A stretch of DNA of 64,000 nt from Desulfomonilia bacterium (GTDB lineage: Bacteria > Desulfobacterota > Desulfomonilia > UBA1062): the NCBI GenBank assembly GCA_050014195.1, contig JBEKDT010000008.1:64001-128000 (forward strand), written 5' to 3'. Positions 14,567 to 44,060 of this stretch are shown in pieces. The translations under genes and the position numbers were made by a program. The notes below the pieces were generated by a model that was not told where the DNA came from, made no database searches, and saw nothing but the letters and a program-made list of their open reading frames with translations. Positions within the stretch are counted from its first letter, which is position 1. Each line of letters opens with the position of its first letter.

Positions 14567-15604
14567 TTATGCGCGCTTATGCGGATTGTCCGGTCCGTTT
14601 TCGTGCATCCGGGGGGGCGATAGGCGTTTGATATGTGCCAGGGCCTTGCGGTTGAGGAGGACCTCCTTTCTTAAAAAATGGATCTGGGAGGCAAGGAATC
14701 CAAAAGATAAGATCTGGATGCCGCCCAGTATGAAAAGGATCATGAGGGTGGTCAGGGGTCGGTTTGGATTGAGGATATGACCGTAGTAGAGAAACAGGAT
14801 GTATCCGCCTATCCCCATACCTATGAGGAAGAGCACAACGCCCACAAAGCCGAAGAGCAGGGCAGGCCGCTCGAAAATAGTGAACAGAAGGTGAGAGACC
14901 GCCGTTGACTTGAAGACGAATTTTGATGCGCCCTTTTTCCGTGAGGTGAGCACGGCAGGGATCTCTCTGACCCGAAACCCCATGGCAAGCAGTTTGGAAA
15001 GGATCTCCAGGTGTATCTCCTTGCCGTTGGATTCCAGGTCGAGGCTGCTGATGACCTCATTACGATAACACCGCACGATACAGGTGAGGGTATGGATCTT
15101 TTCAGGCAGGGCCAACTGGAGAATCTTGTTACCCATCATGGAGACGAAGAGCCTGTCCTTGGGGACACCCTCGGTTCCGCCGCCCTTCATATAAGGACTC
15201 ACGAGCACAACATCGATGTCGCTCTCATTGTCGAGCACTTGTGCCATCTGAAGGATGTAGGCAGGGTCATAGGAAAGGTCGGCGTCGATGGTGGCGATGT
15301 ATCTGCCGCGGGCCGCCTTGAACCCGTATCTGATGGCCTTGCCCCTGCCGCCGTTCTTCCAGTAGGAGACTACATGAACATGTGGGTCTTTTGATGCGAT
15401 CTCATCCAAGATATCAAGGGTGCCGTCCGTGCTGCCGTCATTGACAGGGATGATCTCATAGGGCTCACCTGTTCCCTTCAGGAGGCTTTCCACACGGGCG
15501 ATCGTGTCCGGGGCGTTCTCCTCTTCATTGAACATGGGGATGATCACGCTGATCTTTACCGGGTAATCATCCGGCTCTATACCCACTTCAGCACCCTTGT
15601 GCAT
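14567..15604 (-). CDS. GT2 polyprenol-phosphate glycosyltransferase with two C-terminal TM helices
   Basis: SVIIPMFNEEE, VNDGSTD and IDADL (DxD) motifs; two hydrophobic segments; ATG 15604 lies 6 nt after a TATGAT -10-like box (probably leaderless). Confidence 0.9.
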   Translation of the reverse strand: MHKGAEVGIEPDDYPVKISVIIPMFNEEENAPDTIARVESLLKGTGEPYEIIPVNDGSTDGTLDILDEIASKDPHVHVVSYWKNGGRGKAIRYGFKAARGRYIATIDADLSYDPAYILQMAQVLDNESDIDVVLVSPYMKGGGTEGVPKDRLFVSMMGNKILQLALPEKIHTLTCIVRCYRNEVISSLDLESNGKEIHLEILSKLLAMGFRVREIPAVLTSRKKGASKFVFKSTAVSHLLFTIFERPALLFGFVGVVLFLIGMGIGGYILFLYYGHILNPNRPLTTLMILFILGGIQILSFGFLASQIHFLRKEVLLNRKALAHIKRLSPPRMHENGPDNPHKRA

Positions 15605-15729
15605 GGTTTGATCATATCGAATATTCAAATTGTTGTATAGGAATTCTTTGATCGAAAGTGGAAGCCTGAAGAGATAAAAAGGTGCGAACCGTCTTGATTG
15701 TCCCCTGTTCACTCATGTTGACCCATGTA

Positions 15730-15820
15730 CAGACAAAGATCTCCCCCGATGGGAGATCTTTATAAAACTTTGGAGGAGGAACGAGGCCGGGAAATAATAT
15801 CTTAGTTTTTCGTGAGGCTA
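15730..15820 (-). ncRNA. Candidate sigma54-dependent small RNA (or attenuated leader)
   Basis: Lies between a perfect -24/-12 promoter and an 11-bp hairpin (15735-15761) followed by U-rich sequence; contains UUCCUCCUCC. Confidence 0.45.
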
Positions 15821-15830
15821 CCATATATAA

Positions 15831-15847
15831 TGCAATGGGGGTGCCAA
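15831..15847 (-). promoter_or_regulatory. Sigma54 (RpoN) promoter
   Basis: TTGGCACCCCCATTGCA on the minus strand is an exact TGGCAC-N5-TTGC match; near-IHF site AATCAT-N4-TTG just upstream. Confidence 0.8.
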
Positions 15848-16072
15848 TGACTGAAATTGTCCAACATAATGATTATACTTATAAATAAATCTCAGCTTCG
15901 AATGCGGATCATGGGGTGAGTGAAAAGAAATGCCCATTTTCTCTAAGGGATTTCCAATTCTTCCATGAGGCCCCGGAAGGAGGGGCGATCGACTTTGTCA
16001 GGCATGATAGTCTTCGGTGATCAAGTTCTCACATTACGAATGAATGCACAGTGGTATGAAGAGAGATGCCGA

Positions 16073-16906
16073 CTATGGTTTGAGGCGGTTGATGAATTTT
16101 GTTAAGAGTTCTTCTTCAAGGCCGTAATCGCCGAGTGAGAATGCATTCCTGCCGGGGCCGTGGAAATCGGTGCCGCCTGTGACCAAGAGCCCCAGCCTGG
16201 AGGCCAGACCGGTGTAGAGTGCTGTCTGCTCCGGGGTGTGCTCGGGGTAAAGGACCTCGATCCCGGCAAGGCCGGCCCCCATGAGGTCCTTGATAAATGC
16301 CTCCAATCCCTGTGAGCCCAGACCCAAGGTGTAGGGGTGGGCGAGCACCGGCAGGCCCCCAAAATGTACAATGAGGGAGACGGCCTTCTTCCAGGTCATC
16401 TTTTCCTTGGGCACATAGGCCTTCCTGCCTTTGCCGAGGTACTCATCGAATGCCTCATCGAAGGAACGGACATACCCTTTCTTGAGCAGGGCCTTTGCAA
16501 TGTGGGGCCTGCCGATCTGTGCATCCTTTGCCTCTTTCAGGACATCTGCTTCGGTAAGCATACACCCGAGGGCATTGAGTTTTTTAATGACCTTGGGGAT
16601 CCTTTCCCTGCGGGCTGTCTGCACCTGCTTAAGGGCCTCCTCAAGACCATGAGGGTTGGCGGGGAAATATCCCAGGATGTGAAGCATGCCCGGATCATAT
16701 TCAGCGCTGATCTCTACGCCCGCAATAACCCGGATGCCATGTGTCTTTATGGAATTCAGCACATTTTGAACCCCTGCAAGCGTGTCATGATCGGTCAGGG
16801 CGATAGCCTTAAGGTTCAGGTGCGCTGAGAGTGTAATGAGTTTCTCCGGGCTCAGATCGCCGTCGGATGCGGTTGAGTGGGTGTGAAGATCGGCCTTAAC
16901 AAGCAA
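16073..16906 (-). CDS. PHP-family metal-dependent phosphoesterase (YciV/TrpH-like)
   Basis: DLHTHSTASDG, TDHD, GRPHIA, LAHP and GGTDFHG motifs. Confidence 0.93.
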   Translation of the reverse strand: MLVKADLHTHSTASDGDLSPEKLITLSAHLNLKAIALTDHDTLAGVQNVLNSIKTHGIRVIAGVEISAEYDPGMLHILGYFPANPHGLEEALKQVQTARRERIPKVIKKLNALGCMLTEADVLKEAKDAQIGRPHIAKALLKKGYVRSFDEAFDEYLGKGRKAYVPKEKMTWKKAVSLIVHFGGLPVLAHPYTLGLGSQGLEAFIKDLMGAGLAGIEVLYPEHTPEQTALYTGLASRLGLLVTGGTDFHGPGRNAFSLGDYGLEEELLTKFINRLKP

Positions 16907-16917
16907 AGCTTAATCTT

Positions 16918-17283
16918 TCATATGGGGACCGTGGTTTCCAGGACTTGTGCGATCTTTTTCTTGAGTTCGGTGAGGTCGGAGGATTTTACGACGTATGCAT
17001 CTGCGGCGATGGACTTGATGTCAACCTTATAGCTTCCATAGGCGCTGCAGAGGATCACGGGAAGGTTGTAGAACTTGTTCCTGATCTCCTGAAGGACGTC
17101 CAGGCCGTTACTGGAGACCATCTTGATATCAAGGATGATGACATCGGGTTTTTCCTTCTCGATGCGCTCCAGTATCCCTGAACCGTCTGAGGCAACAGCC
17201 ACCTCATAGCCTTCCTCTTCCAGCTCTTCGGCATAGAGCAGCCTGATGTGCTTCTCGTCATCGACGATCAATACCTTTGGCAT
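16918..17283 (-). CDS. Single-domain response regulator (REC)
   Basis: VDDE, LDIKM phospho-Asp, CSAY and VVKS motifs. Confidence 0.93.
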   Translation of the reverse strand: MPKVLIVDDEKHIRLLYAEELEEEGYEVAVASDGSGILERIEKEKPDVIILDIKMVSSNGLDVLQEIRNKFYNLPVILCSAYGSYKVDIKSIAADAYVVKSSDLTELKKKIAQVLETTVPI

Positions 17284-17298
17284 TGAGAGCTCCTTTCT

Positions 17299-18516
17299 CT
17301 ATTGGCTCCACCGATAGGTGAGATATGGCTTGCTCTGTTCGAATACGAGGCACATATCTTCCAAATACTCCTCTGCCTGTTGATGGGACATTCCCTCGGT
17401 CTTGTTCACGAACGATAAGGTCATGCCGTAGTACAGGGGGACGAGGATATCGATGAGCTTACCCCGATCGAGGGTCTTCTTATGGTAGCCGATGGCGCAA
17501 TCGAAAAGGACACGTGCCCAAACGGGGATGGGCATTTCGAAGTGATCGATGTCGAGCGATGCGATCTCCCTGATCTTTTGGATATTCTCACTGGAAAACA
17601 TGGATCTGTAGACATCCCAGTGATTGTTGAACCCCTCCCTGAATTTTATATAGAGTTTGTCTTTGCTCACCTTGATGGCAGGCGGCGCTTCCACGTCGCC
17701 TATGCCGAATCCGAAGATGGCCGTGGGCTTGCTCCATTTGGTTGTTGCCCATTTGTCATGGAACACGCCCATGAGGTTGAACATGGTGATCACCATCTGG
17801 CGGAACATGGTGCCTACCTCCAGGGTGGGGTCCCTGGGTTTGCTGATCTTGGGCTTGCCCAGAAATGCCTGGCATATGGGAACGCCCTCATTCACGGCAA
17901 TGGTTGTCATCCATATGTCGATGCCGAACTGGCTCACATCCTCATCCCACAGGGGGCTTTTCAGAAAGATGCCCGCCATCTTTCCCGACAAACCGAAGTC
18001 CCCTCCGATCGGTTGCCGCACCCTCCTGCCGTACAGACTCCGGGTGAGAGGGTAGGCGATATTGTTGGTAATGGTGCCGTCATATTTATGCCTGACATAC
18101 AGGGGCGCCACAAATGCGAAGTCTTTGAAGACAGGTTCTGCAAGGTTTTTGATCCACAGCGGTGTTATGCTCTTGAGGCTGGCATCGATGATGACTGCTG
18201 CCTTTGCATCGAGTTCCAGGACTTTTCTCAACAGGTTTTTCACGTTGTTTCCCCTGCCCCTGATGCCCCTGGGTGTGGAGACATACATTTGAGGGATGCC
18301 ATGGGAGTCTGTATCCCTGAAGGCTTTGCCGGTCCCGTCGGTGCTGCTGTTGTCGCAGTTGATGATGACGCTGTCCAGATCTTTGAAGTAATCCTTCAAC
18401 CCCAGGCAAGCCTGCTCGGTGGGATATGCGATGTTGGATGCCTCGTTATAGGACGGAATACCTACGACGAGGTCGGCCTTTGTGATCCCACTGGGGTTGT
18501 CCTCCTGAAACTTCAT
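17299..18516 (-). CDS. Glucosylglycerate-synthase-like glycosyltransferase
   Basis: VVGIPSYNEA, PLYVRHKYDGTITNNIAYPLTRSLYG, RQPIGGDFG and FGIDIWMT motifs, characteristic of Ggs/Mgs-type enzymes. Confidence 0.8.
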   Translation of the reverse strand: MKFQEDNPSGITKADLVVGIPSYNEASNIAYPTEQACLGLKDYFKDLDSVIINCDNSSTDGTGKAFRDTDSHGIPQMYVSTPRGIRGRGNNVKNLLRKVLELDAKAAVIIDASLKSITPLWIKNLAEPVFKDFAFVAPLYVRHKYDGTITNNIAYPLTRSLYGRRVRQPIGGDFGLSGKMAGIFLKSPLWDEDVSQFGIDIWMTTIAVNEGVPICQAFLGKPKISKPRDPTLEVGTMFRQMVITMFNLMGVFHDKWATTKWSKPTAIFGFGIGDVEAPPAIKVSKDKLYIKFREGFNNHWDVYRSMFSSENIQKIREIASLDIDHFEMPIPVWARVLFDCAIGYHKKTLDRGKLIDILVPLYYGMTLSFVNKTEGMSHQQAEEYLEDMCLVFEQSKPYLTYRWSQ

Positions 18517-42275: not shown

Positions 42276-42560
42276 ATGAACAAATCTGAACTGATTGAAG
42301 AACTCTCCATGCGCATGGCTCTCCACCCGAAGAAGGCAGAGGCCCTGGTGAACTCCATCCTCAGCTCCATGATTGTTGCCATGAAGGGCAAACGGCGTGT
42401 AGAGATTCGCGGGTTCGGCAGCTTTGTCATGAGGGATTATAAGCCCTACATCGGGAGGAATCCCAAGAGTGGTGAGAAAATCCAGGTCAAATCCAAAACC
42501 CTGCCCTTCTTTAAATCCGGGAAAGACATGAGAGACCGGGTGAACGGCAAGGCCCAGTAG
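42276..42560 (+). CDS. ihfB: Integration host factor beta / HU family protein
   Basis: MNKSELI, RVEIRGFGSF, GRNPKSGE and PFFKSGK motifs. Confidence 0.85.
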   Translation: MNKSELIEELSMRMALHPKKAEALVNSILSSMIVAMKGKRRVEIRGFGSFVMRDYKPYIGRNPKSGEKIQVKSKTLPFFKSGKDMRDRVNGKAQ

Positions 42561-42656
42561 ACCTCGATAAATTCTGCCTAAGAATCTTTTTTGCAGATCA
42601 GAGCGTCTATATATTGACGCATGTGAATACTTGCGGTATATGTACCCTACAAATTT

Positions 42657-44060
42657 ATGGGTAACCATTCTATACTTATTGTTGACGATGAAATCCAAAA
42701 TCGGGAATACCTTTCCGAGATCCTCTCAGATGAAGGGTATTCCATTACTACGGCTGCAAACGGAAAGGATGCCATCTCCAGACTTACCCAGGATACTTTC
42801 CAGGTAGTACTTACCGATCTCCAGATGCCGGAACTCGATGGACTCGGCGTCATAGAGTATCTAATCGAGAATAAGCTGAACACCATCGGCATTCTCTATA
42901 CGGGCTATGGCTCGGTAAAAACCGCGGTGGATGCCATGAAGCTTGGGGCCTTTGATTATATCACCAAGCCCTTCAAGGCCGACGAAATCAAAGTCGTGGT
43001 GAAAAAGGCCCTTGACCACCTCGCCTTGCAGGAGGAAAACACTTACCTGAAACAGCAGCTCAAGGCCCGCTATAAGTTCGAGAACATCGTGGGGACTTCC
43101 GAGAAGATGCAGAAGATCTTCGGTCTCATCGACAAGGTAGCCTCAACGGACTCCACGGTCCTGATCCTCGGTGAATCAGGTACCGGCAAGGAGCTCGTTG
43201 CCCGGGCTCTGCATTATAATTCCATGAGATCTGCAAACGCATTTATCCCCGTAAACTGCGGGGCTATCCCCGAAGAGCTGCTTGAGAGCGAGCTCTTTGG
43301 CCATGAAAAAGGCGCTTTCACCGGTGCGTTCAGGACCAGGATCGGCAGGTTCGAGCTTGCCTGCGGCGGCAGCATATTCTTGGATGAAATTTCTGAGATG
43401 AGCCCAAACCTCCAGGTAAAGCTGCTTCGCGTCATCCAGGAGAGGGAATTCGAACGTGTCGGCGGGATCAAGACCATCAGGGCTGATGTGCGGATAATCG
43501 CCGCAACAAACAAGAACCTCGAGGAAGAGGTCGCTGAAGGCAGATTCCGGGAAGATCTCTACTACAGGCTTAATGTCATACCCATCCACCTTCCTCCCTT
43601 GCGCGAGAAGACCGATGACATACCGTTGCTCATCAAGCATTTTCTGGAGAAGTACAGCGAAGGCAAGTCACCCAAGAAAGTTGAATTCAGCAAAAAGGCC
43701 ACAACTTCACTCATGCGCTATCGCTGGCCCGGCAATGTACGCGAGCTGGAAAACCTGGTGGAACGCATGGTGGTTTTGAGCGATTCCCCCATTATTGATG
43801 TTGCAGATCTACCGGAAAAGGTCCTCACCGGTGCCACGGTGATATCTTCCGCCATCCCGCAACTCGATCTGCCCGAGACAGGAATTGATCTGTCTACCGC
43901 AGTGAATGAATTCGAGCGGAGTATTATCGTCCAGGCCCTCAATAAGAGCAATTGGGTCAAAAACCGTGCCGCTAAGCTCCTGCACGTGAATAGAACGACA
44001 CTGGTGGAGAAGATCAAGAAACAGAAACTCCAAAAACCCACTGAATCGAATATTTCCTAA
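42657..44060 (+). CDS. Sigma54-dependent response regulator (REC-AAA-HTH), likely flagellar regulator
   Basis: Intact TDLQMP receiver; [23 protein letters not shown] and [10 protein letters not shown] motifs; Fis-type HTH. Confidence 0.93.

Follow-up and report, generated by a model that had tools for sequence, protein, structure and literature searches.

What is encoded in the intergenic stretch that precedes a GT2 glycosyltransferase gene in a Desulfomonilia bacterium? In the window analysed here (64,000 nt of contig JBEKDT010000008.1, numbered from its first letter), a preliminary description had pointed, on the minus strand around 15730 to 15875, to a sigma54-type promoter followed by a CU-rich tract and a hairpin. 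It had proposed a small RNA (sRNA) that represses translation in trans, or else an attenuator. Because the unit made of promoter, tract and hairpin is conserved across three genera, we consider the locus to be a gene, probably one for a stand-alone sigma54-dependent small RNA. Comparison of genomes shows these three parts retained together, present in a single copy per genome, and independent of the promoter of the GT2 gene. From the same sequences we infer that the RNA is produced, that its 3' end lies at the hairpin and that its synthesis depends on sigma54. Action of the CU tract by pairing with Shine-Dalgarno (SD)-like sites is a more tentative proposal, and overall our doubt about it somewhat outweighs our confidence. 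The parts of the predicted gene are the following.

15847-15831, minus strand: sigma54 promoter TTGGCAC-CCCCA-TTGCA (-24 GG, -12 GC), an exact -24/-12 match
15791..15820, minus strand: predicted transcription start at ~15820 (+/-2 nt), placed by the usual spacing to the -12 GC, followed by the RNA's variable 5' region
15772..15790, minus strand: conserved single-stranded tract CCGGCCUCGUUCCUCCUCC, from 11-16 aligned sequences
15779-15772, minus strand: putative seed CCTCCTCC (RNA CCUCCUCC), within UUCCUCCUCC, from reading of the sequence
15735..15761, minus strand: hairpin AAAGAUCUCCC-AUCGG-GGGAGAUCUUU, the probable 3' end or terminator, from the minimum free energy fold and covariation
15727..15734, minus strand: tail GUCUGUAC after the stem, a weak U-tract, from reading of the sequence
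15862..15874, minus strand: integration host factor (IHF)-like site AATCATTATGTTG, with an A/T-rich tract before it, by comparison with the IHF consensus
15920..15943, minus strand: conserved A/T-rich motif GAGAAAATGGGCATTTCTTTTCAC, ~90 nt upstream of TGGCAC, from orthologous upstream regions

Promoter, tract and hairpin in the window

The promoter core TGGCAC-N5-TTGCA (15846-15831, minus strand) has the exact spacing. Written as TGGCAC-N5-TTGCW, it is the single exact match in the whole window, where dinucleotide shuffles average 0.07 such matches and 7 of 100 shuffles hold at least one. With one mismatch allowed, the window holds three matches to the sigma54 pattern against 2.28 expected, which is chance level. 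Genome-wide, TGGCA[CT]-N5-TTGC[AT] has 28 matches, and our own arithmetic from base frequencies gives about two by chance. The predicted start at ~15820 follows from the usual distance to the -12 GC (15833-15832). All 20 aligned orthologous promoters retain the -24/-12 boxes and the IHF-like site, and their flanks vary. The consensus of IHF sites is WATCAANNNNTTR; in the alignment, 18 of the 20 promoters have (W)TC-N7-(G/A)TT(A/G) exactly 27 nt before TGGCA, and two have it one base off. At this fixed spacing, the predicted site fits the position expected of IHF at a sigma54 promoter. Both the exact sigma54 promoter and the near-IHF site (15874-15862) that had been read from the letters alone hold up in the relatives.

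The genome that carries the window (4.2 Mb in 29 contigs, 50% G+C) encodes rpoN (211 bits), hfq and 11 HU/IHF-family genes. It has 27 matches to PF00158, and the 25 of them at E below 1e-60 represent strong sigma54-activator genes. The nearest to the RNA locus are two that lie in the window, ~27 kb away; directly upstream of one of these stands an HU/IHF-family gene (window 42276-43589, corresponding to C8:106276-107589).

Farther upstream, the A/T-rich motif (family pattern GAAAA..GG.AATTTATTTCC) recurs at a similar position in most of 19 orthologous upstream regions, whether the upstream gene is a PHP or a cysK-like one. It may be a candidate activator site (upstream activator sequence, UAS), the tail of the PHP-gene terminator, or both. 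In one related genome (G003), the promoter module alone occurs a second time (L016, contig C9:69096-69235), 88% identical to window 15820-15958. This copy comprises the A/T-rich motif, the IHF-like site, TGGCAC-N5-TTGCG and the sequence up to the predicted start. An acyl-CoA dehydrogenase gene precedes it, and a 420-aa open reading frame (ORF) with a signal-peptide-like N-terminus follows after ~240 nt. Because it stands in another gene context, the ~140-bp promoter module seems to be a portable regulatory unit.

The hairpin begins 59 nt after the predicted start, close to the ~60 nt of the preliminary description. Its arms, AAAGATCTCCC (15761-15751) and GGGAGATCTTT (15745-15735), enclose the loop ATCGG and form the perfect 11-bp stem that had been described. 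RNAfold extends the stem to 13 bp and folds the 93-nt RNA at -21.3 kcal/mol with the CU tract unpaired; compared with shuffles, the full-length fold is unremarkable (z = -1.5). The U-rich end that had been ascribed to the hairpin stands in part: a CUUU is present, but it lies within the stem, and the GUCUGU that follows is a poor U-tract. A terminator-pattern scan of 20 kb gave 16 sites against 16.4 expected and is uninformative on terminator usage.

Other coding possibilities in the region fared poorly. The plus strand reads GGAGGAGG, then AACGAGGCCGGGAAAT, and, as had been noted, no ATG, GTG or TTG follows at ribosome-binding site (RBS) distance. There is no plus-strand ORF of at least 40 aa between 15395 and 15964 and no convergent gene, and we rejected a plus-strand gene or terminator. 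A 70-aa ORF at 15612-15824 was set aside, as it has no Pfam match and the region is not conserved as coding sequence. We also dropped a small ORF after the hairpin (NUG 4-6 nt after GGGAG), whose frames and lengths, judged by eye, are not conserved.

Conservation in three genera

We compared Desulfomonilia metagenome-assembled genomes of the genus to which the window belongs (g1), of its sister genus (g11) and of a third genus (g5). A DNA search of g1 with the query 15600-15960 matched 12 of the 14 other genomes, and conservation was highest over the tract with the hairpin and over the last 50 nt ahead of the GT2 start. The whole unit of promoter, tract and hairpin stands upstream of the orthologous GT2 gene in 13/15 g1 genomes, 5/5 g11 genomes and two syntenic cases among 12 g5 genomes, and TGGCA(C/T)-N5-TTGC(A/T) is kept in 13, 5 and 2 of them, respectively. 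Counted over distinct orthologous g1 loci, our own included, the sigma54 boxes are found in 12 of 13, and they are also present in the divergent orthologue of G001 (loop GACA, tail UUUUG). At four GT2 loci of other genera, from species-representative genomes, the sigma54 promoter lies 270-350 nt upstream of GT2 and is followed by CGGCCUAAAUCCUACC and then by (A)n-GGGAUCUCC-loop-GGAGAUCC-U7-8. The unit is missing entirely from G005, and in G004 the contig ends inside the tract.

Covariance models give a similar distribution. The element is single-copy in the genome of the window, and a first model (R1) found one copy per genome in 12 of the 14 other g1 genomes. A second model (R2), built from 16 sequences and run on 122 genomes of the class, matched 22/51 genomes of the family and 0/70 of the neighbouring family. 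By genus, these matches fall in g1 (12/14), g11 (5/5) and g5 (3/12), with weak matches in g10 and g4. Inspection and tblastn synteny identified as true members all five g11 matches and two g5 matches (G067, and G073 contig 21); confirmed members are flanked by a cysK-like or PHP gene and by GT2. The weak matches L257-L260 are non-syntenic, look unrelated and were discarded.

A further g5 match, L261 (G073, contig C3:142261-142347), is a partial paralogue of the g5 RNA that comprises the tract, a weakened hairpin and ~60 nt downstream. Its gene neighbours differ, and the 150 nt before it contain no sigma54 boxes; G073 carries 6% contamination. A metagenome scan with the 17-nt hairpin core returned at least 120 stretches, and 80 loci from it, searched with model R1, held no new homologues. 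Among these loci, three full-length alignments of model R1 (L054, L112, L059) proved on inspection to be unrelated terminators or coding sequence, and the remaining R1 matches were core-sized. Rfam 15 gave nothing relevant, either for window 15300-16300 (E up to 10) or for four loci of the sister genera (E up to 1).

Covariation among related genomes, which had been named in advance as a check, is evident in the hairpin. In an 11-sequence alignment, 4 of the 11 stem pairs show compensatory changes. With 16 sequences, 7/12 pairs are double-changed and 91% of cells are paired; sliding the partners by 1-3 columns leaves 31-71% paired, and 0/500 shuffles reach the observed values, counts that are not probabilities, as the aligned sequences are related. 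The stem sequence GGAUCUCC is conserved across genera beyond the needs of a terminator. In g11 and g5 the homologous hairpin takes the form (A)n-GGGAUCUCC-loop-GGAGAUCC-U5-8, to judge by its sequence a textbook intrinsic terminator, so the product there would be a discrete short RNA. For g11 the predicted RNAs measure ~70-80 nt, for g5 105-111 nt and for g1 73-104 nt.

Among the unpaired stretches of the predicted RNA, the CU tract is the best conserved, and it forms invariant and near-invariant columns in alignments of 11-16 sequences. Its core is unpaired with a mean probability of 0.98 here and, across the 10 orthologues scored, of 0.76-1.00. Most g1 genomes carry CCGGCCUC(A/G)UUCCUCCUCC. 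The g5 tract reads CUAAACUCCUCCCUU or CUAACUCCCGCCUC, with the anti-SD-like forms CUCCUCCC or CUCCCGCC, and that of g11 reads CGGCCUAAAUCCUACC in 5/5 genomes. Thus CCUCC is present in the g1 and g5 tracts and CCUACC in g11; the core common to g1 and g11 is GGCCU-N3-UCCU-N-CC. The 5' part shows no conservation from one clade to the next, and each clade tends to have a small 5' hairpin of its own. All the predicted RNAs share a clade-specific 5' part, an unpaired pyrimidine tract and a terminal hairpin. A 5' part, an unpaired tract and a terminal hairpin are the standard build of a base-pairing small RNA.

The GT2 gene and the possible roles of the locus

The gene downstream and its promoter bear directly on whether the sigma54 transcript could serve as a leader.

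14567..15604, minus strand: GT2 glycosyltransferase gene, 345 aa, ATG at 15604-15602 (Pfam PF00535, E 3e-34)
15611..15639, minus strand: sigma70-type GT2 promoter TATACA-N17-TATGAT, from a promoter scan

The encoded GT2 is of the polyprenyl-phosphate glycosyltransferase type; its best NCBIfam matches are ArnC- and PgfS-like, all below cut-offs. TATGAT lies at 15616-15611, 6 nt before the ATG, with no SD motif in between, as the preliminary description had recognised for the -10 box. The GT2 genes of g1 and g5 read CTATACA-N17-TATGAT-N6/7-ATG and are likewise without an SD. With so short a distance from the -10 box to the ATG, and lacking an SD, the GT2 mRNA would be leaderless in this genome and more widely in g1 and g5. 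The g11 gene has TATACA-N17-TAGTAT, followed by a ~25-nt leader with AAGGAG and a TTG start. Both promoter hexamers are thus conserved, with spacers that differ by clade. The genome without the sigma54 unit (G005) still has TGTACA-N17-TATGAT-N6-ATG before GT2, and the distance from the hairpin to the GT2 promoter ranges from ~10 to ~270 nt across loci. As the gene keeps its own promoter, G005 retains that promoter alone and the distance varies, the sigma54 transcript is unlikely to be the 5' untranslated region of GT2.

In the explanation that we prefer, sigma54-RNA polymerase, helped by IHF and an enhancer-binding activator, would transcribe a small RNA of ~85-95 nt, from ~15820 to 15730 on the minus strand. 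The GC-rich 3' hairpin would end the transcript, efficiently in the sister genera and probably partially in g1 with its decayed U-tract. The exposed CU tract could then pair in trans with purine-rich SD-like sequences of one or more mRNAs, and this pairing would lower the translation of the targets, possibly with Hfq. A target site that follows the seed might then change from GGAGGAGG..GAGGCC in g1 to GGUAGGAUUUAGGCC in g11. The trans-acting repressor of the preliminary description gains from a conserved single-copy unit and from the terminators of the sister genera, and loses in that no target rose above controls. Its anti-SD seed suits this genus and g5 but not g11. An anti-SD function is plausible for the g1 and g5 tracts and is no family-wide constant, because the tract differs by genus and degenerates in two genomes.

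Several observations weigh against an sRNA gene with an anti-SD seed. All five g11 genomes have an invariant AAAUCCUACC, with CCUACC instead of CCUCC, and two g1 genomes have a degenerate tract (CCUUAUUCAUCC in G008, CCUCAUCC in G013). None of the PF00158 matches of the genome is an activator gene adjacent to the RNA locus. The g1 tails are U-poor (UUUGUCUGU here, AUCCAUCC in G006, UUGCGCAC in G012) and range from the UUUUG of G001 to that of G006; because the U-run has decayed to various degrees, termination in g1 may be leaky, with read-through possible. G013 has lost both the PHP gene and the promoter, and 15 nt separate the end of a response-regulator gene from the mutated tract (L006/L018/L027, contig C339). 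As the hairpin is kept there without the promoter, it can apparently be used as a plain terminator of the response-regulator gene; G013 is 76% complete in 410 contigs, and an assembly artefact is possible.

The target searches, which were crude (duplex energies without accessibility, home-made start-site calls, start regions of G000), tell in the same direction. Over 3649 such regions, the five best seed energies ran from -37.3 to -31.7 kcal/mol; the best energies of 10 flank-shuffled control seeds were -35.2 to -42.3, and the real seed did no better. Genome-wide, the duplex scan of G000 gave thousands of strong, unspecific GGAGG sites. The complement of the g11 seed, sought with up to three mismatches in the five g11 genomes, had no more matches than the reversed control. 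Seed matches to GAGGAGGA of NEEEN codons are confined to g1, and no consistent site for cis pairing turned up, either in the spacer downstream or in the 5' region of GT2. Two individual candidates were dropped: the second-best duplex match (C15:108776), with two-block pairing over SD and AUG, where the ORF translation looks spurious, and a recurrent g11 site at codons 6-10 of a coaBC-like gene, which shows no compensating changes in G000.

In all three genera the unit invariably precedes GT2 directly and shares its orientation, despite the swap of PHP and cysK-like genes behind it, and a cis element would look alike. It could therefore give GT2 an additional, conditional promoter together with a leader or attenuator, the hairpin being a regulated terminator and read-through, perhaps mediated by a protein at the CU tract, placing the gene under sigma54 control. 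The weak U-tract of g1 would suit this. We nevertheless consider such a leader unlikely, and the attenuator of the preliminary description less likely than it had appeared, given the GT2 promoter conserved between hairpin and start codon and the U5-8 terminators of g11 and g5. A reading of the g1 and other-genus loci also found no upstream antiterminator partner for the 5' arm of the terminator, and neither the spacer of 10 to 270 nt nor the GT2 promoter that G005 keeps without the unit fits a leader well. Leaderless mRNAs in general suggest, moreover, that an internal AUG without SD on a read-through RNA is translated poorly, which would apply to the g1 and g5 ATG at 6-7 nt after the -10 box. 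Another possibility is promoter occlusion past a leaky hairpin in g1: the RNA itself would have no function, and sigma54 transcription running towards the sigma70 promoter of GT2 would lower its expression. That promoter lies 10-100 nt past the hairpin in g1, where the U-tract is eroded, and in G002 the hairpin and the -35 box are ~10-15 nt apart. We think occlusion very unlikely, as it leaves unexplained both why an unpaired tract within the RNA is the best conserved part and why, 170-250 nt ahead of the GT2 promoter, the sister genera maintain a strong terminator.

A genuine small RNA acting otherwise than by anti-SD pairing would fit the null results of the duplex and g11 seed-complement scans, in which no RBS target exceeded the controls. 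It might bind or sequester a protein through GGCCU..UCCU.CC or the GGAUCUCC stem, or pair at a site other than an RBS; g1 and g11 share just GGCCU-N3-UCCU-N-CC, g11 is without CCUCC, and the stem is more conserved across genera than a terminator requires. Three of the four seed variants (that of g1 and both g5 forms) are nonetheless complementary to GGAGG-type sites, the g11 variant retains UCCU, and there is no candidate protein partner, so we rate this explanation quite unlikely. The degenerate tracts of G008 and G013, the promoter deletion in G013 and the absence of the unit from G005 might instead suggest a chance arrangement of motifs or a decaying remnant without function. This is extremely improbable in our judgement, since three genera retain the boxes, the tract, the covarying hairpin and the spacing of the IHF-like site while the surrounding intergenic sequence diverges.

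The form of the GT2 start varies together with the tract. A leaderless-looking GT2 (window 15604-15639, L037, L256, L262) accompanies the CCUCC-type tract, and at L249-L255 of g11 a leader with AAGGAG is present; the observation covers three genera only. Because a CCUCC-like tract goes with a leaderless GT2 in g1 and g5, and CCUACC with the AAGGAG leader in g11, RNA and gene might conceivably form a functional pair, in which an RNA that mimics the anti-SD damps translation of SD-led mRNAs and the SD-free, leaderless GT2 escapes when sigma54 is active. We regard this idea as a long shot.

Related systems and gene neighbourhood

The classical sigma54-dependent sRNAs are Qrr1-5 of Vibrio (LuxO/sigma54), GlmY/GlmZ, CrcZ and NrsZ. 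Our locus resembles them in its IHF-like site, -24/-12 boxes and short predicted RNA with an exposed putative seed and a probable terminator hairpin, and in having a candidate for their upstream activator site(s); it differs in taxon, sequence and gene neighbourhood, and has no Rfam match.

Three published systems are also close in kind. In Desulfovibrio vulgaris, sigma54 activators are described as targeting sRNA genes (PMC3333781), and Dv_sRNA2 is given there as a target of the response regulator DVU0679 (Rajeev et al., 2011; PMC3333781). What the two loci have in common is a small RNA gene preceded by a predicted sigma54 promoter, both in bacteria of the former Deltaproteobacteria. For Dv_sRNA2 the activator gene adjoins the sRNA and binding was seen by DNA-affinity-purified chip (DAP-chip), whereas our RNA is without an adjacent activator and is predicted from sequence.

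NfeR1 of the alpha-r14 ('cuckoo'-type) RNAs of alpha-rhizobia has a nearly identical pyrimidine motif (CCUCCUCC here), and its CCUCCUCCC anti-SD seeds are reported to act by pairing with ribosome-binding sites (PMC10746234). In the same account, NfeR1 has three copies of the motif in hairpin loops and is activated by LsrB and repressed by NtrC (PMC10746234), whereas here we find one copy, an unstructured linker and a sigma54 promoter. We rejected membership of the alpha-r14/cuckoo family, given the single motif in a linker rather than a loop and no Rfam match. CJnc230 (FlmE) of Campylobacter jejuni is presented as RpoN-dependent, with a single-stranded anti-SD-like stretch between two stem-loops, and as always lying beside the same gene (PMC11187230). 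By that account it arises by processing of the flgE mRNA at its 3' end (PMC11187230); the RNA predicted here would start from a promoter of its own, ahead of the neighbouring gene.

By its sequence, then, the locus would represent a new RNA family of a familiar regulator type, a member of none of the families compared. It leaves the general picture of how such RNAs work unchanged. To our knowledge, almost nothing is known of post-transcriptional control in Desulfomonilia and related uncultured anaerobes of peat and sediment. For a genome with 25 sigma54 activators, a conserved and apparently sigma54-driven small RNA with promoter, seed and terminator offers a concrete regulatory node.

The gene order around the locus is conserved (window 16073-18516, minus strand): a receiver-only response regulator, a PHP-family phosphoesterase, in some clades a cysK-like gene, then the RNA, GT2 and an acyl-CoA dehydrogenase. 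A 405-aa ORF in this region (17299-18516) has no NCBIfam match and a weak MGS_GT match alone in Pfam. The PHP-family phosphoesterase scores best in NCBIfam against 3',5'-nucleoside bisphosphate phosphatase and against RNase RNM, and neither match reaches its cut-off.

At one g1 locus (L007, in G008), a ~270-nt insertion separates the hairpin from the GT2 promoter. It contains a long, near-perfect inverted repeat, TTAAAATCAGTGATCTCTTTAGC ... GCTAAAGAGATCACTGATTTTAA, and may be a miniature mobile element. The genome that holds this insertion is also the one with the most degenerate CU tract.

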